IMG/VR virus record: IMGVR_UViG_3300046710_000261
Coordinates: 91,949 to 155,948 of that record
Source: a virus
Lineage: Duplodnaviria; Caudoviricetes
Length of the DNA: 64,000 nucleotides
Direction: 5' to 3' (one strand)
The notes below the pieces were generated by a model. It saw only the letters and a list, made by a program, of their open reading frames with translations. It ran no database searches and was not told the DNA's origin. The translations under genes and the position numbers were made by a program. Shown in pieces: positions 6,671 to 35,989 of this stretch (within the stretch, counting starts at the first letter, position 1; the number at the start of each line of letters is the position of its first letter).

Positions 6671-6713
6671 AAGCTGTCAAATTTTCGAAAATTTGTAAAC
6701 GCCAGCGTTGCTT

Positions 6714-6749
6714 GAGGAAGAAAGAGAAATTTTTCTTCCTCTTTTTTTA
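6714..6749 (+). terminator. Intrinsic terminator after Ubl
   Basis: GAGGAAGAAAGA-GAAA-TTTTTCTTCCTC followed by T-run. Confidence 0.7.
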
Positions 6750-6751
6750 TG

Positions 6752-6780
6752 TTTACATATTGATGTTTTTATGTTATAAT
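6752..6780 (+). promoter_or_regulatory. Promoter of E2-E2-E1-JAB operon
   Basis: TTTACA...TGTTATAAT. Confidence 0.65.
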
Positions 6781-6826
6781 ATAAGTAGAATTGTATTGTC
6801 TATTTTTCAATATAGGAGAGAAAAAC

Positions 6827-7780
6827 ATGGCAGAAAAAAATCTTGATGATCTGAAATCGGAAATGACCAATTGCCTCAATGTTGTAGATATTGAGAAGAT
6901 CAAATTGGATAAAGTGACAATGAGAGTTGGAAACAAGATCGTTCAGCTTGCCGTTGTCGGTGATGCTTCTTCCACATCTGTTGATCAGGAAATCAGAAAA
7001 GAATATAGCGAAAAACTAACCAAGAAACTTGCTCAAATTGGAGATATAATCAATAACAAGATGAGTGAAGTTACGGCCATGGTCAGTCAGATCAAAAGTG
7101 AATATGATCGAAAAGAAAAAATCATAAATGACAGAATGAGAAATATGTCTCCCATGCCTGATGTAAATTTAGATATGGCAAGAAAGGGAATGTATGTTTT
7201 CAAGGGAGATAGTGGAGAAGTTTGCTATCTTATCAGGGGAAAATATCGTCCTCTTATGATCGACCAGAAGCCCCTTAAACCTGTCCAGGCCAAAAAACTT
7301 GAAGCAGATATTTTCATTATGTTCAATGTAAAAGATGGAAAAAACATATCAATGGTGTCTACCAGAGATATAAACACTCTTGACTATTTTGATCATTATC
7401 ACCAAGCAAAACCCGATTGTTGGGGGAAATGGATGTGGCCGAAAGATTTTAAAACTCCTTATGATCTGTTTTCTATTGCTAGAACAGCAGAAGGTGTTTT
7501 GGAAAATATCAATACTGGTTCTATAGCAAATAGAAATCCAAGGATATATCCAAAGATTGATGTTCTGAGAAAATACATTATTGACACTGATGAATTGAAA
7601 TCTGAATTGGATGGCATGAAAAAGGGAAAGAAGAAATCCTGGATGGAAATGGATGAATTGGAATTGGAAAGACTTGCTGAAGGAAGAATGCCGGAACCAG
7701 AAGTGGCCCAGCCCCTACCAGGAGAAGAATTAAGACCTCAGAGACGAGAAGGCACGGAAACTTGGGATACAGGAAGGTAA
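6827..7780 (+). CDS. Putative prokaryotic E2-like protein with N-terminal coiled coil (paralog 1)
   Basis: FDHYHQAKPDCWG (His...Cys spacing reminiscent of E2 HPN...C) and LENINTGS; lies between Ubl and E1. Confidence 0.55.
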   Translation: MAEKNLDDLKSEMTNCLNVVDIEKIKLDKVTMRVGNKIVQLAVVGDASSTSVDQEIRKEYSEKLTKKLAQIGDIINNKMSEVTAMVSQIKSEYDRKEKIINDRMRNMSPMPDVNLDMARKGMYVFKGDSGEVCYLIRGKYRPLMIDQKPLKPVQAKKLEADIFIMFNVKDGKNISMVSTRDINTLDYFDHYHQAKPDCWGKWMWPKDFKTPYDLFSIARTAEGVLENINTGSIANRNPRIYPKIDVLRKYIIDTDELKSELDGMKKGKKKSWMEMDELELERLAEGRMPEPEVAQPLPGEELRPQRREGTETWDTGR

Positions 7781-11114: not shown

Positions 11115-11155
11115 TAAGACCATCTTAGAGATTTTTCTTTAAGATGGTTTTTTTA
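11115..11155 (+). terminator. Intrinsic terminator closing the Ubl locus
   Basis: ACCATCTTAGAGA...TCTTTAAGATGGT plus T-run. Confidence 0.7.
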
Positions 11156-11168: not shown

Positions 11169-11176
11169 TATAAATA
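11169..11176 (+). promoter_or_regulatory. T4-type late promoter
   Basis: TATAAATA upstream of the 11.3-21.6 kb array. Confidence 0.55.
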
Positions 11177-11774: not shown

Positions 11775-12599
11775 ATGAAATGGTTGGATTTTATTGCTCC
11801 TGAAATGAATATTGCTTATGAAGTAATGAATAATCTTTATTACTTCAACAAAAGACTTTTTGATGCTGCGAGAAGATGTAATTTTTCTATTTCCTCATTA
11901 GGAGAAATTGGTGATACAAAAAACCATATTTACCTATTGAAACGACCAAAGGTAAATGGTGGAAACGGTCTTATTACATCGGGATTTCATGGAAATGAAA
12001 TTGCTGGCCCTTGGGGCGTCGTGAGGTTTTTAGAAAATACCGATTTGAATATATTTGACAATATAAACGTTTCAATTATTCCCCTAGTAAATCCCATGGG
12101 GTTTAGAATGAATATGAGGCATGGGGGATATGGTGACGATTCTAACAGGGGATATATAAAAACTGATGATATACAACATATTCCTCAATTGTCTAAAGAA
12201 GGAGAGATTTTGAGGTCACACGGGGCTATCTATAAAGACTTGGCCAAGGATGGGTTGATATGTCTCCACGAGAATCCTGGATACGATTTTGACTATTTCA
12301 TATACGGATATGAAAAATCGGCAGAACCAGGAAATTTCACCAATCTATTCAGAGACATAGAAACCAAATATTTCCTTCCTTTTGGATTTGGTGAATCTCC
12401 AAGTAAATGCGATGCCGTGATTGATTCGATTGTTTTCAAAAGATTTGATGGTGGATTTCAGGATTGGCTTTTTAGAGAGGGCATGACAGACAGGGCCGTT
12501 GTTACGGAAACTCCTGGAAATCAACCATTGGAAAAACGATTGAAGTGTAATGTTGAGATGATTGAAGCATTCATAAATTGGATACGAGATAATACATGA
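11775..12599 (+). CDS. M14-family metallocarboxypeptidase (AstE/AspA-like)
   Basis: GFHGNE, VNPMG, DSNR, CLHE, TETP. Confidence 0.85.
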   Translation: MKWLDFIAPEMNIAYEVMNNLYYFNKRLFDAARRCNFSISSLGEIGDTKNHIYLLKRPKVNGGNGLITSGFHGNEIAGPWGVVRFLENTDLNIFDNINVSIIPLVNPMGFRMNMRHGGYGDDSNRGYIKTDDIQHIPQLSKEGEILRSHGAIYKDLAKDGLICLHENPGYDFDYFIYGYEKSAEPGNFTNLFRDIETKYFLPFGFGESPSKCDAVIDSIVFKRFDGGFQDWLFREGMTDRAVVTETPGNQPLEKRLKCNVEMIEAFINWIRDNT

Positions 12600-13225
12600 G
12601 ACTAAATGAATTTTTAAGTAAAGAAGATTTTTCAAAGAAATCAGAAGAAATATGCGATATATTAAGAAAAGAATGCTTTGATTTTATCGTGGAATCCAAA
12701 GGTCAATCTCTTTATAGGGCAACATATCAGCCTGTGAATCATTATAGATTATTTCAATCTCATGTTAAAAGCGGTCGTGAGCCAAGAAATACACCACCAG
12801 AGGTTCATGATTATTTGAATGACTTGTTTATAGAACATCTTGGATGGAAGGAACGAGATGGTGTTTCTACAATGGGGCATGAATCTGGTTATTATGGTTA
12901 TGCGTATTTGTTTTTTCCTGTAGGCGAATATCAGTATGCTTGGGCAGATGATATTTATGATATATATATTAAAATAAATGATATTGCTGATGAGGTTACG
13001 GGCCAGAGATCTATTCCTCATCTCTTCTTTTTGGATAAGTATAAGGAAGAAGCAAAAATAAGATTACAACAATTAGTGAAATCATATAACGATGATAGAC
13101 TTGCAGAAGCAATTCATCAAGATGCGGAAGTAGTTTTTAATTGTAAAGAATATTATCTTGTCAGTCAAGTGTATTTGGAAGATATAAGAAAAGCTATGAA
13201 GGTTAGGAAGAAATATATAAAGTAG
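12596..13225 (+). CDS. ART-like paralog (subfamily A), MRL leader
   Basis: LYRA...R.P...GW..RDGVST...YG..YLFFP...AEVVFNC. Confidence 0.55.
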   Translation: MRLNEFLSKEDFSKKSEEICDILRKECFDFIVESKGQSLYRATYQPVNHYRLFQSHVKSGREPRNTPPEVHDYLNDLFIEHLGWKERDGVSTMGHESGYYGYAYLFFPVGEYQYAWADDIYDIYIKINDIADEVTGQRSIPHLFFLDKYKEEAKIRLQQLVKSYNDDRLAEAIHQDAEVVFNCKEYYLVSQVYLEDIRKAMKVRKKYIK

Positions 13226-13236
13226 AGGGATTATAG

Positions 13237-13815
13237 ATGAGATTGAATGAATTTATATCAGAAAAAATGATGGATTTTCCTCATGTAAGGCAGAGCACAA
13301 ATTACTCTTGTGGTGCAGCCGCTGTTCAATCAGTTATAGCATATTATGAAAACGATATGCCGAGAGAAACCGAAGTGATGAAATGGCTTCATACCGTTCC
13401 CTGTGATGTGATGAATATCGGCTCGGCAATTCAATCCGTTATATCTTTTCTAACAGAGCGTGGATATACTCTTGAACATAAGGAATATTTTACTATAGAA
13501 GAGGTTGTTCAATATATTCAACGGGACATTCCTGTAATTGTCCTGATGCAAGCATGGGCAGAGCAAAGACCAAAAGACTATTCTATGACATATACCGATG
13601 GTCACTATATTGTTGCTATCGGTTATAACTTATTTCAGAAGAGATTATTTTTCGCCGACCCGTCTTTGGAAACAAGGGGATGGCTGGATTTTGATGAATT
13701 GAATGCGAGATGGCATGCAGTTGACGAAACAGGGAAAAAAGTAGAACATTATGGTTTTGCAGTTTCAGGAAAGAAACCAAATTTCAGTAATAAGGTAATT
13801 AAAAAAATAGAATGA
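13237..13815 (+). CDS. C39-like cysteine peptidase, MRL leader
   Basis: RQSTNYSCGAA, GHYIVAIGY, FADPS. Confidence 0.88.
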   Translation: MRLNEFISEKMMDFPHVRQSTNYSCGAAAVQSVIAYYENDMPRETEVMKWLHTVPCDVMNIGSAIQSVISFLTERGYTLEHKEYFTIEEVVQYIQRDIPVIVLMQAWAEQRPKDYSMTYTDGHYIVAIGYNLFQKRLFFADPSLETRGWLDFDELNARWHAVDETGKKVEHYGFAVSGKKPNFSNKVIKKIE

Positions 13816-14615
13816 GACTAAACAATTATTTGGAAGAAGAAAGACGAAGCAGAAGTGTTAGTGTTACGACGAAATGGGTGAAAGATTTCATTTCTCATAA
13901 TGATAATTCTGTTGAATCTTCTTCATTATATAGAGGCATCAAAGGGGCAACAGAACCATATTATTTTACAGACCCATCTAAAGGGGAGAGAGGTTCACGA
14001 GACACCTTTATATTCTATGTGTTAATGATGGATAATTTTCCAGAATGGAAGGAATATCCAAAACGAAGCAAATCAATTATTATGGGAACGAGTGATGATG
14101 TTGCCTATTCTTATGGTACGGCTATATATAGAGTTTTTCCAGTAAATAATGCTAAAATAGCAATCTCCCCGAAATTTGATGTGTGGTCTGCTTTTGTCTT
14201 TTCTCTTGGCTCGGGAATTGAAACTTTTAGCATTGAATTGAATACTATTTTTGGTCTTTTTCGCGAAGAGATACACAAGGAACAAAAAATAACATATGAA
14301 GAATTATTGAAAAAATTTAGTATCGCGGATAGGCCCAGAAATAAAGAAAGAATTAAAACATATTATCAAGAAATGAGTTTAGGCTTAATGCGCAGTAAAA
14401 TATTTCATGATAAATCTGAATATATCAATACACCTAAACTTAAATTAGTGGATGTTTTGAGAGAAAAAATTAGTCCTAAAAATAACAATTTTGAATTGAT
14501 AACTCTGAATAAACATATGATTCTTCCTCCCAGACGGGAAGCGTGGACGGATAGTGAATGTGTTCTGGTGAGCGTAAATTCTTTAAAAAATATTTTAGAT
14601 CCATCATTGCTTTGA
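13812..14615 (+). CDS. ART-like paralog (subfamily B), MRL leader
   Basis: LYRG...YPKRSKSII.GTS...YG..YRVFP...REAWTDS. Confidence 0.55.
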   Translation: MRLNNYLEEERRSRSVSVTTKWVKDFISHNDNSVESSSLYRGIKGATEPYYFTDPSKGERGSRDTFIFYVLMMDNFPEWKEYPKRSKSIIMGTSDDVAYSYGTAIYRVFPVNNAKIAISPKFDVWSAFVFSLGSGIETFSIELNTIFGLFREEIHKEQKITYEELLKKFSIADRPRNKERIKTYYQEMSLGLMRSKIFHDKSEYINTPKLKLVDVLREKISPKNNNFELITLNKHMILPPRREAWTDSECVLVSVNSLKNILDPSLL

Positions 14616-14625
14616 GGGTTTTTAG

Positions 14626-15417
14626 ATGAGATTAAATAATTATATATTGGAAGATAAAGCAGATAAGTATACAATGATTTCTGAAAAGAAAGCAATGGAA
14701 ATAGTCAAGGCCAAATGTTCCGATGCCCATAATAGTGATACGAGATTATTTAGGGGATTGAATAGAACCGATCCCGCCTTTATCTATAAGCCATCATTAT
14801 CACCGAGACATTCAAAAATTAGAATAGAATTTTTGATGTTACTTGCCGACAATCTTCCATCATGGAAAGAATATCCAAAAAGGTCATTATCTATTTCTAC
14901 TATAACAGGGAAGATGGGGCCAGGTGAATTTGGTAGTGTTTTATATAGAGTGTATCCTTTTAATGGGGCGAAATTGGCGGTCTGCCCAGCAATAGATTTT
15001 AATCAGGGTTCATTTAAGAAATCTTTGGGTGATATAGGTGAAGCAAGACTATTATATTATCTTCAAGATATATTTGACAAAATTTTTAATTTGAAGGGGA
15101 ACATAGAAAAATGGACAGACTTTGTTAAAGTTTTAAGTCTATGTGATAAGAATAAAGATAAGATTGAGAAGTGGTATAGAACAACACAGCCAGAATTGGT
15201 ACAAAAATATTTTATAGACCATGTAAAATATTTTGGTAGGAATATCAGTTTTTTGGATGCTCTTGATGAAGCACTTGACCCTAAAAAGAATGGATTTCGT
15301 ATTGCTAATATCAAAACACAAATTCCAGAGGGGAAGGAAGTGTGGACAGATTCGGATTGTGTTCTTATTTTTAAAGGAAAAGCAGAACGCCGAGGATTTT
15401 CGGAGTTGATAAAATGA
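14626..15417 (+). CDS. ART-like paralog (subfamily B), MRL leader
   Basis: LFRG...YPKRSLSIST...YRVYP...KEVWTDS. Confidence 0.55.
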   Translation: MRLNNYILEDKADKYTMISEKKAMEIVKAKCSDAHNSDTRLFRGLNRTDPAFIYKPSLSPRHSKIRIEFLMLLADNLPSWKEYPKRSLSISTITGKMGPGEFGSVLYRVYPFNGAKLAVCPAIDFNQGSFKKSLGDIGEARLLYYLQDIFDKIFNLKGNIEKWTDFVKVLSLCDKNKDKIEKWYRTTQPELVQKYFIDHVKYFGRNISFLDALDEALDPKKNGFRIANIKTQIPEGKEVWTDSDCVLIFKGKAERRGFSELIK

Positions 15418-16226
15418 GATTAGAAAATTATCTTGAAGAAAAAATAAAATATGATGATAAAACAAGGTCTTCAGTTTTGGATTTGGCAAAGGGCCGAGAA
15501 TTTATTTATTCATCTTGCTCTAAAGCACTTGATGCTCCTTATGCTATATATAGAGATTCGGCCACAACAGGAGATGTTCTTCTTGTGGAACCATCAAAAT
15601 ATGAAAGATATTCTGCCAATACTTTTAATTATTATACGTTGATGATAGATAATTTTCCAGAATGGCAAAAGTATCCCAAAAGAAGCAAATCAATCATTTG
15701 TTCTACAAACCCAATATATGCCGAAGCCTTTGGTGAAAACTTATATAAAGTGTTTCCTATTGATGGAGCAAGAATTGGAGTATGCCCTAATTCTGATATA
15801 TGGCCAACAAATATTGGTGGTAAAGCCCAATTGAGCGACCTTGTTGAAGCTATTGATGACTTATTGATTATTTTTTATAATAACATTTTACACGAGGCCA
15901 AACCCGAATTGATAGACAGGGATTATAATAAGTTTAAAAAAGCTATGGAACTTATTGATAAGAACTTTGAGAAATTTGCGCATGAGTACAAAAACACAGG
16001 GCAGGAATATTATTCTAAGAAATATTATTGTAAGATTTGGAATGAATTGAAATATTTTTCCAAGAAGGTCTCTTCTATTGATTTTTTGCGAAAGATTTTC
16101 AATCCAGAGACATGTAAATTTGAATTGAAAACATCTGGTGATTCTCTTCCTCTTGATAGAGAAGTCTGGATTGAAGATAAATCTGTTTTAGTCAACAGGG
16201 ATGTCTGGAAAAAAATATTTTATTAA
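15414..16226 (+). CDS. ART-like paralog (subfamily B), MRL leader
   Basis: IYRD...YPKRSKSIICST...YKVFP...REVW. Confidence 0.55.
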   Translation: MRLENYLEEKIKYDDKTRSSVLDLAKGREFIYSSCSKALDAPYAIYRDSATTGDVLLVEPSKYERYSANTFNYYTLMIDNFPEWQKYPKRSKSIICSTNPIYAEAFGENLYKVFPIDGARIGVCPNSDIWPTNIGGKAQLSDLVEAIDDLLIIFYNNILHEAKPELIDRDYNKFKKAMELIDKNFEKFAHEYKNTGQEYYSKKYYCKIWNELKYFSKKVSSIDFLRKIFNPETCKFELKTSGDSLPLDREVWIEDKSVLVNRDVWKKIFY

Positions 16227-16240
16227 AATGAGGGCCGATT

Positions 16241-16966
16241 ATGAGACTTGGTGGATTTATAGACGAAATAAATGAAACTGAATTAATTCAAGAAAGCATA
16301 AATGACTTGGGTATATTCAAAGCTGTTTTTATGGCAGGCTTCCCTGGCGCAGGGAAAACATATGTCTTGACAAAAGTTAAATCGGGACAAATTGAACCGC
16401 GAATGGTTAGTGTTGATAGATATGTTGAATTTAAAGATCCCAATGGTAAAGATTATATGGCGTTTTATGATAGATCAAAAACTGTAACAGCCACACAACT
16501 TCTTCTTTATATCAATTCTCTTCTTCCTCTTGCCGTTGATGTTACATCTTCAAAGTCAACCACGGTTATCAGAAGATATAATATTCTGGAAAATTTGGGT
16601 TATGATATGGGTATGATATTTGTAAATACTTCTGCCGAAACATCATGGGAGAGGATACAGCAAAGATCAAGAAAAGTTGATCGAGATAGTTTTTTAAGAT
16701 ACTATGATCAAATCCAAAAAACGAAGGAATTTCTAAAAGGTAAATTTCCATTTTATATAGAAGCGAAGAACGATACGGGGGAATTGACTGATGAGGTTGT
16801 TTTAGGATCATATAAGAAGGTTTCATATTTTTATGAATCAAGTATAAAAAATCCAATTGGCCAGGGTTATTATAATTTAATGAAAAGTTATGGCTGGAAA
16901 TATTTTACTCCCAATGTAATGCCCATGGCAGAATTGAAAAGTAAGATTGCTGATTGGTATAAATGA
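16241..16966 (+). CDS. P-loop kinase (AAA_33 / zeta-toxin-like), MRL leader
   Basis: KAVFMAGFPGAGKT, IFVNTS, R...RSRKV. Confidence 0.8.
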   Translation: MRLGGFIDEINETELIQESINDLGIFKAVFMAGFPGAGKTYVLTKVKSGQIEPRMVSVDRYVEFKDPNGKDYMAFYDRSKTVTATQLLLYINSLLPLAVDVTSSKSTTVIRRYNILENLGYDMGMIFVNTSAETSWERIQQRSRKVDRDSFLRYYDQIQKTKEFLKGKFPFYIEAKNDTGELTDEVVLGSYKKVSYFYESSIKNPIGQGYYNLMKSYGWKYFTPNVMPMAELKSKIADWYK

Positions 16967-16978
16967 TAGGAGATAAAA

Positions 16979-17530
16979 ATGACTTGTAAAAAATGTGAAA
17001 TTGATAAATTATGGACAGACGAATATTTTTATAGAAGGTCAGACAATGGAAGATTGAGAAAAATATGTAAAGAATGTGTTATTGATAATCAAAGACAATA
17101 TAATTTGAAACATAGAGATGAACAATTAAATTATCTACATTTATATTACGAGAATAATAAAGGAGAAATGATTAAACAAATTATACAATGTGAAAAAAAT
17201 CGTATTCAAAGTGATATACAATTCAAAGTAATTAAAAGATTAAGAAGTCGTATGTATTCAGCATTAAAAGGAAATTGGAAATTTGGTCATACAATTGAAT
17301 TACTTGGATGTTCTATTGATGAATTCAAAAAATATTTTAAAGAGAAATTTCAGCTTGGAATGAATTGGGATAATTATGGTAAATGGCATATTGATCATGT
17401 AAGACCATGTGCTTTATTTGATATGAGCAAAGAAGAAGAACAGAGAAAATGTTTTCATTATACCAATCTTCAACCATTGTGGGCAAAAGATAATATTTGT
17501 AAGGGAGGAAAAATAAAAAATGAAATTTAA
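16979..17530 (+). CDS. HNH homing endonuclease-like protein
   Basis: CxxC pairs; WHIDHVRPC...CFHYTNLQPLWAKDN. Confidence 0.85.
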   Translation: MTCKKCEIDKLWTDEYFYRRSDNGRLRKICKECVIDNQRQYNLKHRDEQLNYLHLYYENNKGEMIKQIIQCEKNRIQSDIQFKVIKRLRSRMYSALKGNWKFGHTIELLGCSIDEFKKYFKEKFQLGMNWDNYGKWHIDHVRPCALFDMSKEEEQRKCFHYTNLQPLWAKDNICKGGKIKNEI

Positions 17531-17882
17531 AGATTTTTATGAAAGACCCATTATGAAGAAAACGGAAGATATAGAAGAACGATTTGTTCTTTCTGAATCC
17601 ACCCATATAGAAAATACTGATATGGAGCACTTCAAAAAGGTATTGAAAAATCCTACACATGGAAAATATGTATTAAGGAGTTACAGGAATAATTATACTG
17701 ATGAAGAAAGAGAAGTAGACATTCTTGCTCTGGAAGGAAGAACAAGAATCGTGTTGACTTATAATGCTGATTTCTTGGAATTTACACAGGAAATGGTTGA
17801 TTTATGTGACGATTTAAATTATACCACCAAGTATGATAAAGAAAGACAAATAAACACACAAACTCTTACGATATATAAGTAA
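17520..17882 (+). CDS. Hypothetical protein, leader variant MKFKDFYE
   Basis: GGAGG RBS; coupled within array. Confidence 0.6.
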   Translation: MKFKDFYERPIMKKTEDIEERFVLSESTHIENTDMEHFKKVLKNPTHGKYVLRSYRNNYTDEEREVDILALEGRTRIVLTYNADFLEFTQEMVDLCDDLNYTTKYDKERQINTQTLTIYK

Positions 17883-17883
17883 A

Positions 17884-18501
17884 ATGAAAGCCAAAAGATA
17901 TATAGCAGAAGCAATAGCAGGTGATAGAGAAATACTTGATTTTGTCAAGAAACAATGCAGTAAATATCTTGCGGAATCAAAAGGTAATACTCTTTGGAGA
18001 GCGATTCCGCGTAGAATCAATAAGTATGAAGTTGTTCAATCGCATATTAGCAATAGGGCACCAATGAATGTTCCTTTGGAATTTCATCATTATCTCAATT
18101 CTATTTTTGAAGAAAAGTTTGGCTGGCCTGTTAGAAACGGAACATTTTCATATAGTGACAAAGAGAAAACATATTTTTATGGTCAGCCTTATATGTTTTT
18201 TCCGATTGGGGATTATAAGTTTGTATGGTCTCCTAATGTATCTGATCTTTTCGGTGCGTTATATTCTTTTATACCAAAAGAATATTTCGAACATTCAAGT
18301 TCTATGGGTGTATGGTGGAAAAAAAAGCCAGAAGAAGCAAAGAAAGTGGTGAGAACATTGTTAATAACATATACTGATAAAAATTTGGTTGAAGCAATAA
18401 AACACAGAGTTCATTTGGTAAGAGACGAAGGTTGCGAAATATCATTCAAATGTGGTAATTATGTTTTAGTGGACGAAGAATATCATTATTTATTTGCGTA
18501 A
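17884..18501 (+). CDS. ART-like paralog (subfamily A), leader MKAKRYIAE
   Basis: LWRA...KFGWPVRNGTFS...YG.PYMFFP.G.YKFVWSP...CEISFKC. Confidence 0.55.
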   Translation: MKAKRYIAEAIAGDREILDFVKKQCSKYLAESKGNTLWRAIPRRINKYEVVQSHISNRAPMNVPLEFHHYLNSIFEEKFGWPVRNGTFSYSDKEKTYFYGQPYMFFPIGDYKFVWSPNVSDLFGALYSFIPKEYFEHSSSMGVWWKKKPEEAKKVVRTLLITYTDKNLVEAIKHRVHLVRDEGCEISFKCGNYVLVDEEYHYLFA

Positions 18502-18505
18502 AAAT

Positions 18506-19528
18506 ATGAGATTATATAAGAATATAAATGAAGCTAAAAATTATAATAACTGGATGTTTCCTTCTCACGAAACAATGGTGGCGGATTATGAAGAATATAA
18601 GAAAAAGGAACAGACCAAGTGGAAATCTAGGGTTGATCGCATTGGTTCACGATTTCCGATATTCAAAGATTTTGAACATTTTCAACAAGCGTTGAAAAAT
18701 GCCAAAGTAATAATATTGACAAAAAATATTGATGATAGAATAATGAATAGAAGCCATTCATTTAGCATAGAAAATTTAAAAGGTTTGGTTTCTTCATATA
18801 TTCGCCCGCGCGATGTTGATAGAATAGTTAGCGGTTTCGAGGACAATGATAAAATTCCTTATCCTATTGTATTGAAAGGCAGCAAAGGAATGTGGATAAT
18901 GGCAGGTAATACAAGACTTGATACATCATTCATTATGGAAATAACACCGAAAGTATTGATGGTTGATGTTTCTGATAAGGTAATGGAAGAACAAATACCT
19001 ATAACTGCTGATAGAATTATTTATATACTTAAAAAGGATTGTAAGCCCTTTATAAAAGAACTTGGTGGTCGTGGATTGTATTATAGATTTAGGCGGTTTC
19101 CTATGGTAGATAATATTCTGAAAATGGATGTAAGAAAAGATCGACAACCAAAAGATATGTCACTTGATATGCAAAGAATATTTGACCATATGTTTTTTAA
19201 AAAATTTGGATGGAAACCACGATCAGAGGGTGTATTTGCTTTGCCTCAATCTGAAATACTGGATGATGCGACATATAATTATGGCAAACAATTTATATTT
19301 TTTCCTATTGGAATATATAAGTATATTTGGTCTTCAAGAATAATTGATTTATATGGTTCTATTCCTGCTTTACGTGGCAAGGATAAAAACGAAGAGGCCA
19401 AAAGATTGGTTAGCAGTTATATAGACAATAGTCTTCCTATGGATACACCACATGAAGTTACATTTTTGTGTGAATATTATTACTTGGTAAACATGAAATA
19501 TGATAAAGCTATCAGGAATGCTATATGA
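18506..19528 (+). CDS. ParB/Srx-like N-terminal domain fused to ART-like subfamily A domain
   Basis: PYPIVL...IMAGNTRL, then LYYR...KFGWKPRSEGVF...HEVTFLC. Confidence 0.55.
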   Translation: MRLYKNINEAKNYNNWMFPSHETMVADYEEYKKKEQTKWKSRVDRIGSRFPIFKDFEHFQQALKNAKVIILTKNIDDRIMNRSHSFSIENLKGLVSSYIRPRDVDRIVSGFEDNDKIPYPIVLKGSKGMWIMAGNTRLDTSFIMEITPKVLMVDVSDKVMEEQIPITADRIIYILKKDCKPFIKELGGRGLYYRFRRFPMVDNILKMDVRKDRQPKDMSLDMQRIFDHMFFKKFGWKPRSEGVFALPQSEILDDATYNYGKQFIFFPIGIYKYIWSSRIIDLYGSIPALRGKDKNEEAKRLVSSYIDNSLPMDTPHEVTFLCEYYYLVNMKYDKAIRNAI

Positions 19529-20430
19529 GATTGAATACTATTTTGAAAGAAGAAGAAGATAGAAATACCAGGTGGGAAGAACTGAAAGTCTTCATTCAGA
19601 AGCATTGTGTCAAATTCATGATAGAATGCGCCGAAAAGAATATTATCTTGTGGAGAGGTTCTAATAAATTTCCTATTGATCCCTATAACATATGGGATGT
19701 ATATCCATCTCGTATTTCTAGTGGAAGAGCACCGATGAGTACAAGTAAATTTCTTCATGATCTGGCAAATAAAACATTCATTGAGAAATTTGGTTGGCCT
19801 GTTCGAGACGGGATTTTTACCACCAAAGATTTTAGTGTAGCAGATAGTTATGGGAGAGCATTTATTTTTATTCCTGTGGATAGTTATCAGTATGCGTGGT
19901 CTCCTAAAATTTCAGATTTTTATATGTATGTAACATCACAAACTACTAAATTAACATATTTTGATATTGGCGGTGGTGATCCTGATGCTATGATGTATCG
20001 TTTATGGATAGAAAAATATGGGCCAAAAACAATTCATGATAATGGTGGTGAATGGTTTGATGTTGTTAAAAATGAAATTATCAAAATGGATAGTTATGAA
20101 AAGAAAAGTAAAGTCTTTTTATCTAACCATAAAGTAGGAGATGAAATAGTTCTTGGTGTCTATCATAAACGAGCAGAAAGAATAAATGTTTTTTGGAAGC
20201 CAACAGTTGATTTTAACCAATTTAAGAAAGAAGAATGGCTTCAACTGGAAGGAGAAATGCGAAGTATTGTTAATACATATACAGGTAAAGTTTTAGTTGC
20301 GGCGAACGAAAAACATGAAATTCTTTTCAATTGTGATAAATATATTATGATATGGGTGCCGAGAGTTGAGTCAACTGAAAAGGAAAAGATACTTTCTGAA
20401 TATTTTAAAATATTGAGGGAATACAAATGA
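19525..20430 (+). CDS. ART-like paralog (subfamily A) with insertion, MRL leader
   Basis: LWRG...KFGWPVRDGIFTT...SYG..FIFIP...HEILFNC. Confidence 0.55.
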   Translation: MRLNTILKEEEDRNTRWEELKVFIQKHCVKFMIECAEKNIILWRGSNKFPIDPYNIWDVYPSRISSGRAPMSTSKFLHDLANKTFIEKFGWPVRDGIFTTKDFSVADSYGRAFIFIPVDSYQYAWSPKISDFYMYVTSQTTKLTYFDIGGGDPDAMMYRLWIEKYGPKTIHDNGGEWFDVVKNEIIKMDSYEKKSKVFLSNHKVGDEIVLGVYHKRAERINVFWKPTVDFNQFKKEEWLQLEGEMRSIVNTYTGKVLVAANEKHEILFNCDKYIMIWVPRVESTEKEKILSEYFKILREYK

Positions 20431-20750
20431 TAGATATACTTGAGAAAATAAAATTTATTTTGGAACAGAACGCAGTAACTTCATATGGCAGACAGGCTCA
20501 ACAGCAGAAAACCGCCACATCAAGTGCATATAAATCATCTGTCACGGCTCAGAGGTCTGCTGCCGCTTCAAGAGTAAGAACACAAAAGGCTCGACAAGCA
20601 ACTCCAAAGAAAAGCACTCAAGGCCCATCTAGTAATAAAGAATGGTGGAATAAAATCAAAAGTCAGAGACAACGACATTCAGACGTTATAAATAAAAGAA
20701 AATCGGCCAATACAAGTGGCTATCAATCGAGATTAGCAAGGACAAAATAA
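20427..20750 (+). CDS. Small basic low-complexity protein
   Basis: MIDILEKIKFILEQ leader, then R/K/S/Q-rich. Confidence 0.55.
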   Translation: MIDILEKIKFILEQNAVTSYGRQAQQQKTATSSAYKSSVTAQRSAAASRVRTQKARQATPKKSTQGPSSNKEWWNKIKSQRQRHSDVINKRKSANTSGYQSRLARTK

Positions 20751-20959
20751 TGGAAAAAGTAAACATCAATGTGGGAACGTTGCCTAATGTAGTTTGTGAT
20801 TGCGGTAATGAATTTTTCGAAAACCTATTTATCGTGAAAAAACTTTCTGCTTTACAAAGCCCAACAGGCAAAGAAGAAGCTATGCCAATTCCTCTTATGA
20901 TTTGTAGTAAATGTGGAAAGAGTTTGGAAGAAATTCTAACAAAACCTACATTACAATGA
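20750..20959 (+). CDS. Small zinc-ribbon protein
   Basis: CDCGN...SPTGKE...CSKCG. Confidence 0.7.
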   Translation: MEKVNINVGTLPNVVCDCGNEFFENLFIVKKLSALQSPTGKEEAMPIPLMICSKCGKSLEEILTKPTLQ

Positions 20960-21558
20960 GACTTGAACAATACATAACAGAAAAAAGATCACCAGTTGAT
21001 ATTCCGGGCTATGATATGGAAAAGAATGCATCTATTATTAAGACGGATTGCCAGCCCTTTTTCAAGGAAAATACTTCTGGTAGATTTCTCTATCGCGGTA
21101 CAAATAAAAGTATAGGTGAAATAGAGAAAATAATTCCAAGAAAAGAAAGAAAACCTTCTGATATGCCACGATTTTTGCACAATGAATTGAATATAGTATT
21201 CGCAAAAAAGTTTGGATGGCCAGTAAGAAATGGCGTATTTGCTACTTCAGATGATCGCGAGGCTGAAGAATATGGTGATCTATACTTATTTTTCCCAATA
21301 GGTAATTACAAATATGTTTGGTCTCCGAAAATACCTGATCTTTGGAAGTTGTTTGATAAAAATACCGGTATTTTCAAAGATTTGATGCATATGACGAGTA
21401 TCAAACCAAGCGAGGAAAAATATTTGGAAAAATCTGTTGATACATATATAGATAAAGATTTATCAAAAGCAATGAAAACAAATAAATCCCATGAGATTTC
21501 TTTTTTGTGTGAAGCATATTATATGATAGACCCTCTATACGAAGAATATCTATTATAA
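20956..21558 (+). CDS. ART-like paralog (subfamily A), MRL leader
   Basis: FLYRG...KFGWPVRNGVFATS...YG.LYLFFP...SHEISFLC. Confidence 0.55.
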   Translation: MRLEQYITEKRSPVDIPGYDMEKNASIIKTDCQPFFKENTSGRFLYRGTNKSIGEIEKIIPRKERKPSDMPRFLHNELNIVFAKKFGWPVRNGVFATSDDREAEEYGDLYLFFPIGNYKYVWSPKIPDLWKLFDKNTGIFKDLMHMTSIKPSEEKYLEKSVDTYIDKDLSKAMKTNKSHEISFLCEAYYMIDPLYEEYLL

Positions 21559-22998
21559 ATCTGGAACAATCCCATCAATGGCATCGCCTTCCTCCAATAC
21601 ATGCTCGATGATATTGAAACCCTCAGAACCATAATATCGAGACCTCTTCACACCAAATTCCAATAAATATTTGATTTCATCCACTATATCGAATACAACA
21701 GAACCTTTTGATTTATCGGTATGAAGTCTCAGTGACCTGCCGATGGATTGTAATACTCTTATTTTGCTTTTGAATGGGGATGTCAGAACGATATATTTGA
21801 GGGATGGGATGTTTATGCCCATCTGGAATGTTCCATAGGTTGCTATGAGAATTATGTTCTTTCTTTTTTCGCATTCCTTTCTCCATTTTTCTCTCTCTTC
21901 AACATCTACTCCACCATGGATGAATACGATTTCTCGCAACCATAAATTATTACATCCTTTGAAATAATCAAATAATAACTGTCCTTCTTTTTCTATTTTT
22001 CCAACAAGCAGAAGAATGTTATGGTCAACGGCTGATACTATATAATGGAGCAACATCATTCTATATTTGTTTCTGAAAATCTTGTCCTTTATATCGTTAT
22101 ATTCTCCATCATATTCTTGCTGATATTTCAGGTTGATTGAGACAACATTACATTTGCTTATATAACCTTTTTCTGCCAATTCATTTGCTGTATATTCTCT
22201 CCATACAGGGCCGATGAACGCCTTGACATTCCATAAATCCATTTTTGATGAGGGGAGGGTTCCAGTAAGACCATATCGGTATTCTGCGCTTGTGCATTTT
22301 TCCATGATCTTTTTTATTTCATGTGCTTTTGCCTGATGGACCTCATCACAGATAACACAATCATATAATTTCAATGCGGTATGGTTGTCTTTCAATGTTT
22401 GCCAAGTTGATATAACAATCGGTTTGTCAAACTCTTTTGCCTTTTCCCAAACTTGTCCTATATCATCTTTTGGTATGCCATATTCAATCATATCATTTTT
22501 GAATTGTTCGACAAGGGAAATTGTAGGAACAATAATCAACGAATGTTTTACTGGAAGATTTTTTATGATATAAGCTATGACCAAACTCTTCCCGCTTGCC
22601 GTTGCTGCCCTGAAAATTCCTTTGGAATACTTCAAAGCGATTTCTATCATCTCTTGCTGGTAATCTCTTGGGGGCAATTTCAAATCATATTTTATTTCGC
22701 CCACTGATGGATTTTTGAACATATCCATTACATCTTTTTCTACTTTCATTTCCAGCATCGGATATTCGTCTTTTTTGAAACGGATGAGATCTATGAATAA
22801 GCCATAAGGAAGGGTATTTCGGTATGCATTATACATGCTTATCTTCCCAGACCAATAGCCCGATTTGAATTTCGGGTTGAATTGATAGTTTTCTACATAG
22901 TCTGAAAAGTGATTTTTTACTGCATCAAGAAAACCTTTCTCTTCGAAGTCTGCATCCAATGTTATAAATAACTTTCCGTACTTCTCTACTCTTATCAT
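21553..22998 (-). CDS. uvsW: SF2 DNA helicase, UvsW-like
   Basis: PRDYQ, ATASGKS, DEVH, GLTGT, QSIGRSLR. Confidence 0.92.
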   Translation of the reverse strand: MIRVEKYGKLFITLDADFEEKGFLDAVKNHFSDYVENYQFNPKFKSGYWSGKISMYNAYRNTLPYGLFIDLIRFKKDEYPMLEMKVEKDVMDMFKNPSVGEIKYDLKLPPRDYQQEMIEIALKYSKGIFRAATASGKSLVIAYIIKNLPVKHSLIIVPTISLVEQFKNDMIEYGIPKDDIGQVWEKAKEFDKPIVISTWQTLKDNHTALKLYDCVICDEVHQAKAHEIKKIMEKCTSAEYRYGLTGTLPSSKMDLWNVKAFIGPVWREYTANELAEKGYISKCNVVSINLKYQQEYDGEYNDIKDKIFRNKYRMMLLHYIVSAVDHNILLLVGKIEKEGQLLFDYFKGCNNLWLREIVFIHGGVDVEEREKWRKECEKRKNIILIATYGTFQMGINIPSLKYIVLTSPFKSKIRVLQSIGRSLRLHTDKSKGSVVFDIVDEIKYLLEFGVKRSRYYGSEGFNIIEHVLEEGDAIDGIVPDL

Positions 22999-23723: not shown

Positions 23724-25091
23724 ATGGATAGTGTAAATTTGGAACGCCTGATAATAAAGACGGCATTGGAAGACAAGCCTTTCTTGGTGACTATAAGTTC
23801 TGTGTTTCAAGATAATTACTTTGAAGATTTGACTATCAGAAGTGTTTTTACATTACTGAAAGGCCATGTTCAAAAGTATGATAACATAATGCCAAGGTCT
23901 GGTGTTATTTCTGAAATAGGAACGGATGAAGTAAAAAATCTATTCAAAGAAATAGATGCTCTGGATTTCAATGTTACAAAAAACTACGAATGGGTATTTG
24001 ACGAAACGAACAAATATCTGAAGGAAAGAGCAATCAAGTGTGCTATATTGGATTCAGTTGAGTTGATTGAGAAGAAGGAAGCATATGCGCAGATTTCTTC
24101 TTTGATTGAAGATGCTCTTATCAGAGATTTACGGATTGATTTGGGCATCAATTATTTTGATACATTGAATGAACGCATCAGAAGGATTTTGGAAAACAGT
24201 ACCATTCGAGTTCCGACATACTATCCAGAATTTGATGAATATATAAATGGTGGCTTTCCTCCATATACATTGTCTGTTTTTGTTTCCAGGATTCATGGTT
24301 GGAAGTCGGCAACACTGGCAAACTTCACGGCTCGACAAGTTATGCATGGTCATAATGTTTTGTTATTGACTATGGAAATGGCGGAAGATGCCTTTGCCCA
24401 AAGGTTTGATGCTATCTTTACAAAACTTGATATAAACAAAATGTATAATGTAAAGACAGAAACCTTGAAGATGATACAGGGGTTGAAGGCAGTAAAAGAA
24501 ACTCCAGGCAGGGGCCAGTTATGGATAAAACAATTTCCTACTGGGGAAGCAACAGTTCTCGATTTCAAGCGATATGTCAGAGAATTGAAAATGAGGGGCG
24601 TCATTCCCTCTATCATTCTTGTTGATTATATAAACTTGATGAAGTCAGCGGAAGATGTTGGAACAGAATTATATTCCAAAGTCAAAAAAATATCTGAAGA
24701 ATTGAGAGCATTGTCTTTTGTTTTTGATTGTCCTGTTATTACGGTCTCACAGTTGAATAGGCCAGGATCGGTTGTTGCATTCGATGAATTGGATTTCGTA
24801 TATATCTGTGAGTCGATGGGTCTTCCTGCTACCGCAGACTTCATGATGATATATGGTGAAGATGAGGACAAAATGGTTTATGAAAGCGAGTTGAATTATA
24901 TCATCATAAAAAATAGATTGGGTGGTCGTGTAAGGGAGCAGAACAAATTTTACTATGATTCTCGTTCATTGAAGATGTATGACCAATCGGAATTGGATTT
25001 GTGGATGGAAGAAGCAAAGATTTCTGGTGATGATAGAAAACTTGCCGAGCAGAAGGAAGAGAAAAGGGTTCCAGGAAGGAGTAAGAGATGA
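23724..25091 (+). CDS. gp41: Replicative DnaB-like helicase (T4 gp41)
   Basis: TMEMAE, IKQFPTG, VDYINLM, SEELRAL, SQLNR, KNR. Confidence 0.92.
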   Translation: MDSVNLERLIIKTALEDKPFLVTISSVFQDNYFEDLTIRSVFTLLKGHVQKYDNIMPRSGVISEIGTDEVKNLFKEIDALDFNVTKNYEWVFDETNKYLKERAIKCAILDSVELIEKKEAYAQISSLIEDALIRDLRIDLGINYFDTLNERIRRILENSTIRVPTYYPEFDEYINGGFPPYTLSVFVSRIHGWKSATLANFTARQVMHGHNVLLLTMEMAEDAFAQRFDAIFTKLDINKMYNVKTETLKMIQGLKAVKETPGRGQLWIKQFPTGEATVLDFKRYVRELKMRGVIPSIILVDYINLMKSAEDVGTELYSKVKKISEELRALSFVFDCPVITVSQLNRPGSVVAFDELDFVYICESMGLPATADFMMIYGEDEDKMVYESELNYIIIKNRLGGRVREQNKFYYDSRSLKMYDQSELDLWMEEAKISGDDRKLAEQKEEKRVPGRSKR

Positions 25092-32469: not shown

Positions 32470-32543
32470 AGGGGGATCGTTCAACGGCAGGACGGTAGGC
32501 TCTGAACTTACAGATCAAGGTTCGATTCCTTGTCCCCCTGCCA
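32470..32543 (+). tRNA. tRNA-Gln(CTG)
   Basis: Cloverleaf, loop CTCTGAA, encoded CCA. Confidence 0.9.
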
Positions 32544-32549
32544 CGATAA

Positions 32550-32624
32550 GCGGGTATAACCTAGTGGTTAGGTGTCACGTTGCCAATGTGATTTAGGTGG
32601 GTTCGATTCCCATTACCCGCTCCA
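32550..32624 (+). tRNA. tRNA-Gly(GCC)
   Basis: Loop TTGCCAA, CCA. Confidence 0.9.
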
Positions 32625-32917
32625 ATCTTCATTACTTCAAATCATCAGAAGTCCTTAGTATTACAATACAATAATAAATTTTTTGAATCCTTTTGCAGAT
32701 ACTTTCATCTAAATAGATGTATGGAGAAGAGGTGTAAACTATAGGATGTGAAAATCCGAGAGAGGGAATGTAAATGGAGAAAAATTCATTTTTGGAAGAA
32801 CGGAAAAAGAAAATGTGGAGTCGCATACCTTTTATGTTTAATTTCGGAACTATTATTTTTAATGGAGAAGAGTTCCACAGAAGAAAATCAAAGTATACTT
32901 TAAAAGGAGGAAAATTC

Positions 32918-33298
32918 ATGTATATTGTAAAAGACACACAGCCCGATGTAGCATTTCAACTATCTTTCCAGGTATTGGATGCTGAAGGAAGCCCTGTTAT
33001 TGATCCAGCAGTTTTGAGTGCATTGAAAGTTGAGGTCGTTTCAGATAATCCATCATCAGTAGCAGTTATTGCTGACCCTGATGGAAACCCACTGAAAGGA
33101 ACAGTAACATTTGGTTCACCCAACACAGACGGAACGCCATCGAATGCCAATATTAATATAACTGTTTCCGAAACAGATGGAACAGTCATTGGTGTATTTG
33201 GTGCACAGTTCACAGTAACCGCAGGTGATCCTGCTGCTATTGCCAGTGGAACAATCGTATTTGCTGGTCTATCAGAAACATCTACTGCTAAAAAATAA
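32918..33298 (+). CDS. Ig-like/beta-rich putative virion protein
   Basis: AGGAGG RBS; V/T/G/D-rich beta pattern. Confidence 0.5.
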   Translation: MYIVKDTQPDVAFQLSFQVLDAEGSPVIDPAVLSALKVEVVSDNPSSVAVIADPDGNPLKGTVTFGSPNTDGTPSNANINITVSETDGTVIGVFGAQFTVTAGDPAAIASGTIVFAGLSETSTAKK

Positions 33299-33369
33299 AT
33301 TAGCACAGATGTAACAACCCACCAAACCCTCATATTGGAAACAGGATGGGGGTTTTTCTTTTCCATAAA

Positions 33370-33377
33370 TATAAATA
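33370..33377 (+). promoter_or_regulatory. T4-type late promoter
   Basis: TATAAATA upstream of the IPT-repeat gene. Confidence 0.55.
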
Positions 33378-33418
33378 GATATAGAAACGCATCTATTAAT
33401 AATTATGGGAGAAAATAA

Positions 33419-34975
33419 ATGGCATACACAATAAGAAATTTAGCAGACGATATTATTCATAATAATATTAGGAATATACCAGCGGAATGGAGAACAATTG
33501 CTGATGATATTATACATAACAGACTTTGGGAAGTCCCAACTTCTCGTACTTTCAACAGGGATGAGTTTTTGAATGAACTTTTACATAATTATATTTCTGA
33601 AATTTCTCCTGATCCTGTTAATCCACCAGGGCCGACAATTACAAGTTTAGATCCCAACAACATAGAGGTTAATAGTCCTGCCTTTCCTCTTACAGTTAAC
33701 GGCACAAATTTTGTCGATAATTCTGTAGTAAAATGGGGTGGTTCATCAAGGGATACTCTATATGTTGGTTCTACACAACTTATAGCAGAAATTCTTGAAA
33801 CTGATGTTGCCGATCCTGAAACGGTTGCTGTTACTGTATTTACTCCAACTCCTGGCGGCGGAACATCAAATGCGCAAACATTTACGATCAATGAACCAAT
33901 ACCATATATTTTAAGTTTAACACCAAATTCTGCCGAAGTAGGTGATGATGCTTTTACTTTGGAAGTAAGTGGAACATTGTTTGATCAAGATACTGTAGTG
34001 AGATGGGAAGGTTCAGATAGAGATACAACTTTTGTCAGTTATACAAGTTTAACTGCTGAAATAAGTGCTTCTGATATTGCTGATGGTGGAGAATTTGATG
34101 TAACAGTATTCAATCCCTCTCCTAGTGGTGGATTATCAAATCCTGAAGTATTCACGGTAAATAATCCTGTTCCAACACTTATAGGTATGAGTCCATCAAG
34201 CAGGATAGCAGGAAGCGTAGCATTTACTTTGACTATTTCTGGAACAAATTTTGAAAATAATTCAACAGTACAATTGGATGGTTCTGATAGAGATACAACC
34301 TTTGTTAGCGGGGCATCACTAACTGCTGAAATAAGTGCTTCTGACATTACAGATGAAGGAACAGTAAATGTTACTGTATTCAATCCAGCTCCAGGTGGCG
34401 GTGAATCAGATGCTTTGACATTTACAGTAAATAATCCAGCTCCTGCATTATCAAATATAAGTCCTTCAGGTGCTATAGAAGGTGGTATTTCATTTACCTT
34501 AACTGTTTGTGGATCAAACTTTGTTGATGATTCAGTAGTAAAATGGGCATCGGTTTCAAAGACTACAACATATGTTAGTCCCACAGAGTTGACAGCAGCA
34601 ATTCCCGACACTAATATTGCTCTTGCCAATAATTATGCTGTAACAGTGTTTAACTCAAGCCCAGGTGGAGGAACCTCTGGTTCTTTGATATTTGAGGTTG
34701 ATCATCCGCTTCCTGAATTAGATAGTATAACACCATCTACAACGGGAGCAAGTGGATCATCATTTACATTGACAGCCAATGGAACAAATTTTGTCAACAA
34801 TTCTGTTGTAAAGTGGGGTGGTTCGAACAGAACAACAACTTATGTTAGTTCTATTAAACTTACAGCATCAATTCTTGAGGCTGATGTTGCCGATCCTGGA
34901 ACTGTTGCCGTTACTGTATTTACCCCAACTCCAGGTGGTGGAACATCAAATGATCAAACATTTACAATTACTTAA
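33419..34975 (+). CDS. IPT/TIG Ig-like repeat protein (five repeats)
   Basis: Repeats of P.I.S..P......F.LTV.G.NF...SVVKW....T.YVS...LTA.I...D......VTVF.P.PGGG.S. Confidence 0.88.
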   Translation: MAYTIRNLADDIIHNNIRNIPAEWRTIADDIIHNRLWEVPTSRTFNRDEFLNELLHNYISEISPDPVNPPGPTITSLDPNNIEVNSPAFPLTVNGTNFVDNSVVKWGGSSRDTLYVGSTQLIAEILETDVADPETVAVTVFTPTPGGGTSNAQTFTINEPIPYILSLTPNSAEVGDDAFTLEVSGTLFDQDTVVRWEGSDRDTTFVSYTSLTAEISASDIADGGEFDVTVFNPSPSGGLSNPEVFTVNNPVPTLIGMSPSSRIAGSVAFTLTISGTNFENNSTVQLDGSDRDTTFVSGASLTAEISASDITDEGTVNVTVFNPAPGGGESDALTFTVNNPAPALSNISPSGAIEGGISFTLTVCGSNFVDDSVVKWASVSKTTTYVSPTELTAAIPDTNIALANNYAVTVFNSSPGGGTSGSLIFEVDHPLPELDSITPSTTGASGSSFTLTANGTNFVNNSVVKWGGSNRTTTYVSSIKLTASILEADVADPGTVAVTVFTPTPGGGTSNDQTFTIT

Positions 34976-34990
34976 TATAGGAGAAATATT

Positions 34991-35395
34991 ATGCCAGTAA
35001 CGGTTAGTAATTCAGTAAAAAGTGGGGTGCTGGTTTCGTTTACCAACCCCTCTTCAGGCACATATGAAATTCAATATAATATAGTTAGATATTCTGGAAT
35101 GTATCTGTATGTGAATTATACAAAAGGTAGCGAATCGAGTGTTGATTTCTTTTTCAAAGCATCTGATAGTTTATTTGCTGCTTCCGTTCCGCCTTCTGGC
35201 GCATACTATGTTATTAAAACAAATTCTTCAAGTGTAGCAAGTCAATATTTCATTAGGTTGACTTCAACGGGCAAATATGTAATGCCTGTTCCAAGTCCCG
35301 AATCGGCAGATTTTCTTACTGCGGAAATAGTATTTAATGGGCCAGATGATGGAACTATAAATGTGTTTGGAAATTATGACGATAGTTATGCATAA
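34991..35395 (+). CDS. Putative virion structural protein
   Basis: AGGAG RBS; beta-rich. Confidence 0.5.
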   Translation: MPVTVSNSVKSGVLVSFTNPSSGTYEIQYNIVRYSGMYLYVNYTKGSESSVDFFFKASDSLFAASVPPSGAYYVIKTNSSSVASQYFIRLTSTGKYVMPVPSPESADFLTAEIVFNGPDDGTINVFGNYDDSYA

Positions 35396-35810: not shown

Positions 35811-35848
35811 AAAAACCCCTCTTGGAGAAATCAAAGTGGGGTTTTTTG
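35811..35848 (+). terminator. Intrinsic terminator
   Basis: AAAAACCCC...GGGGTTTTTT. Confidence 0.55.
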
Positions 35849-35984: not shown

Positions 35985-35989
35985 ATGAG

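Follow-up and report, generated by a model that had tools for sequence, protein, structure and literature searches.

Paralogous phage proteins with a predicted ADP-ribosyltransferase fold and a leader resembling the T4 capsid-targeting sequence

We describe here an array of eight paralogous genes in a 64-kb stretch of phage DNA (the window), which is the last 64 kb of the linear IMG/VR record IMGVR_UViG_3300046710_000261 (155,948 bp). Our reading, to which we give a probability of roughly 0.6, is that the array encodes head-packaged, probably injected enzymes of the ADP-ribosyltransferase (ART) fold, in which a variable insert sets the target. The parts of this reading differ in strength. That the proteins have an ART fold is very probable, judging from structure models; that they are packaged in the head also seems likely, and here the evidence comes from a short N-terminal leader and from the virion proteome of a related phage; that they carry out NAD+ chemistry is, in our estimation, about evenly balanced.

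A preliminary description of this DNA listed eight open reading frames (ORFs) in two subfamilies, and this stands: all eight are present on the + strand within 12596-21558 (Table 1), and alignment separates five A members from three B members with the motifs that had been listed. The A members are 30 to 37% identical in pairs and share L[YW]R, FGW.VR.G.F, YG..[YF].F.P and E[IV].F.C, with the strand-1 motif of A paralog 3 reading LYYR and its Arg shifted one residue out of register; the B members are 33 to 35% identical and share [YF]R, YPKRS.SI, Y.V[FY]P and E.W. Comparison of A with B by hhalign gave 92% when only the window sequences were used, and 97.8% (E 1e-12) once the alignments had been deepened. 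By these comparisons, A and B are homologous sister subfamilies and true paralogs. Hidden Markov models (HMMs) of both alignments, run against all ORFs of the 156-kb record, found exactly these eight members.

The family extends far beyond this record. In a library of 1.84 billion proteins, where clusters were formed at 50% identity, the A profile matched 6319 cluster representatives with E<=1e-3, and still 4816 when the threshold was E<=1e-10; a family with that many matching representatives is not a chance pattern. In the ESM Atlas, the relatives are almost entirely viral. Annotation resources had little to say about them. Pfam matched no ART family to the eight paralogs (E<=1) or to 150 relatives and gave no useful match for longer or fused relatives, an NCBIfam search found no match, and neither did PDB sequence-profile searches with A1, A2 and A5. 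In PHROGs, the paralogs match only families of unknown function, such as PHROGs 15932 and 11975 for A paralog 1. Among cultured phages, tblastn found relatives of the array proteins in RsoM2USA (a Ralstonia phage), Atu_ph07 (an Agrobacterium phage, 7 matching places) and SCTP-2 (a Salicola phage, 8 matching places) only; all three are giant T4-related myoviruses. Megablast of the array region against deposited phage genomes returned no nucleotide-level match.

The top match to the A profile is a metagenomic product of 2645 aa (P0014) with five ART-like stretches, for which Pfam gave a weak GNAT match only. It may be a true multidomain polyprotein; alternatively, it may represent an array in which reading continued from gene to gene in a single ORF, as a recoded stop codon, for instance, would allow.

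Structure prediction and a fold search back, for both subfamilies, the ART fold that the preliminary description had called from a residue pattern. AlphaFold2 models were obtained for one A member (20956-21555; 17 sequences; predicted local distance difference test [pLDDT] score 88.5, predicted template modeling [pTM] score 0.83) and one B member (15414-16223; 28 sequences; pLDDT 90.8, pTM 0.86). The order of elements is the same in both: strand 1, a short hairpin, a helix, strand 2, a helix, strands 3 and 4, then a helical insert followed by strands 5 and 6. The split beta-sheet ART core on which the earlier call had been staked (strands 4-5-2 and 1-3-6, with flanking helices) is present in each model. 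Only the first 10 to 20 residues are predicted with low confidence; they are disordered in A and form a helix, itself of low confidence, in B. In the fold search, the nearest structures were DUF2441, Arr and diphtheria-toxin-type entries, with DarT and KptA/Tpt1 also among the closest, PARP13 and RCD1 entries among the matches, and a weak resemblance to ART-PolyVal domains. Foldseek against the PDB gave nothing significant, with Arr and 2aua topmost at E 0.3, and a search of BFVD structures returned uncharacterized relatives only.

Residue conservation, counted over 150 A representatives and 28 B sequences, places the expected ART residues at both ends of the fold. Strand 1 carries the motif [LFI]-[YWF]-R-G-[TSV], in which R47 is Arg in 149 of the 150 A representatives (His in the other) and in all 28 B sequences; the Gly after it is kept in 133 of 150 A representatives, where T, S or V follows, and in 24 of 28 B sequences. 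The R-G-[TS] motif lies in the modeled strand at 45-49 in A and 46-48 in B, in agreement with the R/H-G-T/S strand-1 signature typical of ARTs (PMC7955679). A Glu opens strand 5 in every sequence (E180 in 150/150 A, E250 in 28/28 B). Counting back from the alignment ends places the catalytic glutamates of PARP1 (E988) and diphtheria toxin (E148) within 1 to 3 residues of E180. The invariant residues are R65, W88, R91, G93, P114, D128 and E180 in A and R47, R65, R90, D128 and E250 in B, so that R65, R90/91 and D128 are common to the two.

The middle of the active site is another matter. Strand 2 reads G-V-F-[ATV]-[TS] in A (F in 140/150) and R-S-K-S-I-I-C-[ST]-T in B, and A and B have no conserved Ser or Tyr of strand 2 in common, the aligned position being Phe in A and Ile in B. 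Neither subfamily has an ExE or QxE, the residue two before the Glu being variable (G, K, R, D and others). Of the R-S/T-E pattern proposed earlier, the Arg and the Glu are conserved in the expected strands, and the S/T is not conserved. Lacking a conserved S/T and an ExE/QxE, these proteins are not canonical R-S-E ARTs of the Alt/cholera type; a profile match to that clade (PF03496, PF01375 and others) and a conserved STS motif were likewise absent. On sequence grounds, the family pairs an R-S-E-type Arg with a single-Glu core like that of diphtheria toxin or Arr.

Alternatively, the proteins could be packaged internal head proteins that keep an ART-derived fold without NAD+ chemistry, serving as structural or DNA-binding cargo or as stoichiometric inhibitors or decoys of host defenses, in the manner of the T4 internal proteins (IPs) or the inner-body paralogs of phiKZ. 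The absence of the canonical middle residue and of ExE/QxE fits this idea, as do the invariant R47, R65 and R91, which could bind DNA phosphates, and the isoelectric points (pI) of 8.2 to 9.3 in five of the eight paralogs. The high peptide coverage of many Atu_ph07 paralogs, described below, suggests abundance, and inactive ART-like domains are known, PARP13 and RCD1 among the matches being examples. What makes this unlikely, in our view, is that the strand-5 Glu and the strand-1 R-G persist throughout the 150 A representatives even though mean column identity is 14%, which is the pattern of a maintained active site; moreover, the other leader-bearing cargo consists of enzymes (Nudix, kinase, peptidases and ATP-grasp).

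The stretch from the invariant Asp that follows strand 4 to the presumed catalytic Glu holds an insert of 36 to 134 residues, depending on the paralog, and no other part of the family aligns so poorly. Known ARTs carry the ADP-ribosylating turn-turn (ARTT) loop, which recognizes the target, at the corresponding place between strands 4 and 5. Because the insert occupies the ARTT-loop position, we propose that each paralog may have a target of its own.

Seven of the eight paralogs open with the leader M-R-L-x-x-[YFIN]-[ILN]-x(1-2)-E, the member at 17884 differing (Table 1), and the consensus, M-R-L-x-x-[YF]-[IL]-x-E, is about 9 residues long. The strict pattern stands at the N terminus of 18 of 306 proxy genes, where 0.05 would be expected from the pattern's internal frequency. 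It is found on otherwise unrelated proteins: the ART-like proteins, C39 peptidases, a kinase, a NUDIX hydrolase, a RimK fusion and small ORFs, and also four genes upstream of the window, one of them a second C39 peptidase, for a total of about 20 leader-bearing genes in 156 kb. The codons of the leader vary (AGA or CGC for Arg; CTA, TTA, TTG, CTT or CTC for Leu) and the DNA upstream of the leader genes shows no conservation; selection therefore acts on the leader peptide. For the same two reasons, we reject the idea that the leader is a DNA-level recombination cassette or a shared promoter.

In the wider family, an [LIMVF]-x-E ending falls within the first 14 residues of 127 of 149 A representatives, compared to 13% of internal 14-mers, and the form of the leader covaries by phage: MRWEQLTE in Atu_ph07, MKINDILKE in SCTP-2, FKQFLTE or FKEYLLE in RsoM2USA, and MRLKKFISE in the metagenomic locus L007. 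This leader resembles the capsid-targeting sequence (CTS) of T4, MKTYQEFIAE, and like a T4-type tag it is short, N-terminal, ends in [LI]-x-E, and is common to unrelated proteins of one phage. In T4, the CTS comprises residues 1 to 10 of IPIII and is sufficient for head loading, and the gp21 protease cuts after L/I-x-E (PMC9026906). Homologues of a gp21-type prohead protease are encoded by Atu_ph07 (gp204, Table S3) and RsoM2USA (ORF379), and LLE, IAE and LTE motifs are present in the N termini of the RsoM2USA capsid and scaffold proteins.

Further evidence on packaging comes from Atu_ph07. The virion proteome of this phage, determined by electrospray ionization tandem mass spectrometry, was published by Attai et al. 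in 2018 (PMC6102473, Supplementary Table S5). In an HMM search of this phage, gp57, gp60, gp61, gp62 and gp63 were A members, gp55, gp56, gp58 and gp59 were B members, and gp54 was a fusion of the two; a 778-aa protein, gp53, fuses a B-like domain to a zeta-type kinase and is annotated as "Zeta toxin domain-containing protein." A further A member, gp408 (E 1e-38, 30.60 kDa), is encoded away from the array. Masses computed for gp54 to gp69 equal the Table S5 values to 0.01 kDa. All 12 family members identified (gp53 to gp63 and gp408) appear in the proteome. Nine of the proteins gp54 to gp63 were represented by 7 to 15 unique peptides and 31 to 47% coverage, and gp55 by 3 peptides and 12%; in the same proteome, coverage was 43% for the portal and 41% for the sheath. 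A DNA pattern for the strict leader of this phage, M-x-W-x-Q-L-x-E, had 10 matches in the 490-kb genome and 0 in the control. Nine of the matches are in the array and the tenth is gp408; each of the 10 encoded proteins is listed in the proteome. On these virion proteins, Attai et al. remark only that CDS 31 to 76 hold many unexplained ones (PMC6102473). The suggestion in the preliminary description that the array proteins are packaged is thus supported both by the CTS-like leader and by mass spectrometry of the Atu_ph07 homologues.

Some observations do weigh against packaged, NAD+-using enzymes. The canonical middle element of the triad is not conserved; the Atu_ph07 virions were purified with polyethylene glycol only; and the 131 proteins of that proteome include leaderless neighbors and also, with low coverage, a small number of replication proteins. 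The mode of purification would also suit the view that the leader is a translation-initiation, recombination-cassette or degradation signal and that the proteins act only in the producing cell. Consistent with that view, the genes are tightly coupled, the array adjoins the replication genes UvsW and DnaB, and neither head genes nor the protease were found on the record. We consider it the least likely of the alternatives and very improbable, since the leader is conserved as amino acids, with varied Arg and Leu codons and unconserved upstream DNA, since it ends in the T4 gp21 motif, and since the virion proteome contains 10 of the 10 Atu_ph07 proteins with the strict leader, mostly at coverage like that of portal or sheath. 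As to the head genes, portal, capsid, scaffold and protease genes were not found on the 156-kb record with PF03420, PF07230 and PF07068 or by tblastn with the corresponding RsoM2USA proteins, the sole trace being a 29-residue portal-like scrap; because the record is a fragment, their absence is uninformative about the phage.

If the array proteins are indeed packaged enzymes, the course of events is most likely the following. The leader would dock each protein to the scaffolding core, much as the T4 CTS does, so that the protein ends up inside the prohead. There, a protease of the gp21 type would remove the leader after the Glu of [IL]-x-E. The mature proteins would remain with the DNA in the head and exit with it at infection. 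NAD+ may be bound in a cleft formed by strand 1 (the Arg of R-G-[TS]), strand 2, and strand 5 (the Glu), and ADP-ribose would be transferred to host macromolecules, with the long and highly variable helical segment that separates strands 4 and 5 giving each paralog its own target. Of these steps, we infer that the leader is cleaved, that the proteins enter the host, that they use NAD+ and that their targets have diversified. Two further Atu_ph07 proteins listed in Table S5 (PMC6102473), the ADP-ribose pyrophosphatase gp238 and the NUDIX hydrolase gp303, were each detected by a single peptide; they lend weak support to the co-packaging of enzymes of an NAD/ADP-ribose network.

Carried further, the array would amount to a capsid-addressed library of effectors, in which one minimal ART scaffold is present in 8 to 12 copies per genome and the hypervariable module between strands 4 and 5 retargets each copy to components of host defense or expression. 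In this tentative and rather doubtful extension, the mixed Arg/Glu active site would be unlike that of any of the three ART clades known, and once the DNA has entered, the proteins would be at work within seconds, alongside a co-packaged kinase, Nudix, peptidase and ATP-grasp.

Several genes of the window bear on these ideas (Table 1). Two of the leader-bearing enzymes lie inside the array, and a second leader cluster lies further downstream on the opposite strand. In metagenomic locus L009, a B member adjoins a C39 peptidase and a RimK-RimB protein, the cargo types that bear the leader on this record.

Table 1. Features of the window (positions in the window, aa, amino acids)
Feature	Position	Strand	Length (aa)	Leader	Remarks
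Terminator-like hairpin, strong	11116-11151	+			Heads the co-oriented gene run containing the array
TATAAATA box	11169-11176	+			T4 late-promoter-like; consensus match only
A paralog 1	12596-13225	+	209	MRLNEFLSKE	A profile E 1e-65
C39-like cysteine peptidase	13237-13815	+		MRLNEFISE	Pfam Peptidase_C39_2, E 1.5e-15; inside array
B paralog 1	13812-14615	+	267	MRLNNYLEE	PHROG 12810
B paralog 2	14626-15417	+	263	MRLNNYILE	
B paralog 3	15414-16226	+	270	MRLENYLEE	Modeled B member
Zeta-toxin/AAA_33-type P-loop kinase	16241-16966	+		MRLGGFIDE	
A paralog 2	17884-18501	+	205	MKAKRYIAE	
A paralog 3	18506-19528	+	340	MRLYKNINE	ART-like part from ~18989
A paralog 4	19525-20430	+	301	MRLNTILKE	Longest strand-4/strand-5 insert, 134 aa
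A paralog 5	20956-21558	+	200	MRLEQYITE	Modeled A member
UvsW-like helicase	21553-22998	-			Pfam; convergent with array end
DnaB/gp41-like helicase	23724-25091	+			Pfam; after UvsW-like gene
Five consecutive leader-bearing genes	50471-53371	-			Second leader cluster
NUDIX hydrolase	50471-50926	-			In second leader cluster
RimK ATP-grasp + Zn_protease/RimB-like fusion	51228-52607	-			In second leader cluster
Small ORFs	within 50471-53371	-	101, 175, 78		Leader-bearing

Domains homologous to the array kinase form fusions with a B-type domain in PHROG 12810 and in Atu_ph07 gp53, and a leader-bearing P-loop protein (GTPGAGKT) adjoins the RsoM2USA homologue. A P-loop kinase stands beside or is fused to an ART-like domain at 16241-16966 of the window, at 6711-7454 of locus L001, and in Atu_ph07 gp53. 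Because the kinase repeatedly neighbors or fuses with the ART-like domain, the association suggests a functional pair. As part of the doubtful extension above, the recurrent fusion might mark a hitherto undescribed kind of two-step modification, for example phosphorylation and ADP-ribosylation of nucleic-acid ends or of NAD-derived signals.

Another alternative is that the array proteins are active enzymes that use NAD+ without being protein ARTs: they could modify nucleic acids (as DarT or Tpt1/KptA does) or small molecules (as Arr does), or deplete NAD+, possibly together with the kinase. With Arr, DarT and KptA/Tpt1 among the closest structures, several invariant Arg residues that suit phosphate-rich substrates, a co-encoded leader-tagged Nudix, and the recurrent zeta-toxin/AAA_33 kinase as fusion partner or neighbor (PHROG 12810, gp53, RsoM2USA), this possibility has a basis; we nonetheless hold it to be improbable, slightly more so than that of cargo devoid of NAD+ chemistry.

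The surroundings of the array recur elsewhere. The order of a mixed A/B array, UvsW and DnaB is kept in metagenomic loci L007 and L008, and the Atu_ph07 array adjoins gp70, a gp41-like primase/helicase. Upstream of the first paralog, and directly 5' of it, is a leaderless 274-aa ORF (11775-12599) with a weak match to AstE/AspA, a succinylglutamate desuccinylase/aspartoacylase of zinc carboxypeptidase-like type (E 6e-5, below the cutoff). The array is interrupted by a 183-aa ORF (16979-17530) with Cys pairs and an H..H...N...N motif; at the level of motifs, the impression is of an HNH homing endonuclease, and the ORF has no leader and no Pfam match at E<=0.1. Another ORF in the array (20427-20750; 107 aa, pI 11.3) is very basic, rich in Ser, Thr, Lys, Arg and Gln, and lacks the MRL leader, although two I-L-E motifs fall within its first 13 residues; it could be a DNA-associated internal protein.

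At its N terminus, A paralog 3 carries an additional domain of about 160 aa (18506-18988) for which Pfam found no family match. Comparable N-terminal extensions are seen in Atu_ph07 gp63 and PHROG 11975. The segment PIVLKGSKGMWIMAGNTRLD within this domain gives an impression of loose resemblance to ParB/Srx-type motifs.

The window, with a G+C content of 33 to 38%, also holds 34 tRNA genes in one block on the + strand (32470-47435) that cover nearly all amino acids, comparable to the blocks of Rak2-like and XacN1-like jumbo phages. Macro and NadV were looked for on the 156-kb fragment, and none was present.

Packaged phage ARTs, such as T4 Alt, and the CTS mechanism are already known. The family described here, however, is uncaptured by Pfam, NCBIfam and PHROG annotation and carries the label "uncharacterized" in BFVD. 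In the literature searched, which did not extend to the supplements of PMC9503650, no paper was found that connects the family or the leader with an ART fold or with capsid targeting for phages of this group. The finding points to a separate and very large family, with over 6000 clusters (50% identity) whose sole annotation is "hypothetical." Were our reading correct, the packaged-ART strategy would extend to 8 to 12 diverged enzymes per phage by means of a short removable tag, and the leader would be a portable capsid-loading tag for nonmodel jumbo phages. If active, the proteins would be a rich and so far unused source of modifiers that depend on NAD+ and act just as infection begins. Atu_ph07, cultured and with a published proteome, provides a system for testing both the enzyme and the tag ideas.

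Head-packaged ARTs are known from a single well-studied case, T4 Alt, and wider predictions rest on domain fusions. Alt has an ART fold, is loaded into the prohead, has its N-terminal propeptide trimmed by gp21, and enters the host together with the DNA, where it modifies proteins of the host (PMC9026906, PMC9503650). The array proteins are like Alt, and like ModA and ModB, in having a predicted ART fold in a T4-type myovirus, and like Alt in their predicted head packaging. However, Alt belongs to the Alt/VIP2 R-S-ExE family, whereas the array proteins lack a Pfam ART match, an ExE and a conserved Ser, and they form arrays of 8 to 12 diverged paralogs, in contrast to one packaged copy. The T4 CTS is likewise a tag of 9 to 10 residues ending in [IL]-x-E on otherwise unrelated proteins of one phage; it differs in sequence, and the proteins that bear the leader here are present in far greater number and mostly resemble enzymes, the role of the tag being assigned by analogy.

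The nearest structure, BC2332/DUF2441 (PF10386; PDB 2AUA), is about 10% identical and has no HMM match to the family; the DUF2441 HMM found nothing on the whole record at E<=10, nor did it appear in hmmscan. DUF2441 lacks the leader and is not known as virion cargo. In Arr, the toxins of the diphtheria, exotoxin A and cholix group, DarT and Tpt1/KptA, strand 1 carries His (or Tyr) and strand 2 carries Tyr. The signature of the array family is a mixed one, with Arg in strand 1 and either Phe or Ile in strand 2. Finally, Iyer et al. 2022 argued that ARTs, Nudix and Macro proteins are often delivered by virions, and phage ARTs in the form of ART-PolyVal domains and MuF fusions have been proposed to be packaged in the head and injected (PMC9503650). 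Those ARTs are delivered by fusion, in giant multidomain or MuF proteins, whereas the members of the array family are stand-alone proteins of 200 to 340 aa, each with a short, putatively removable leader.

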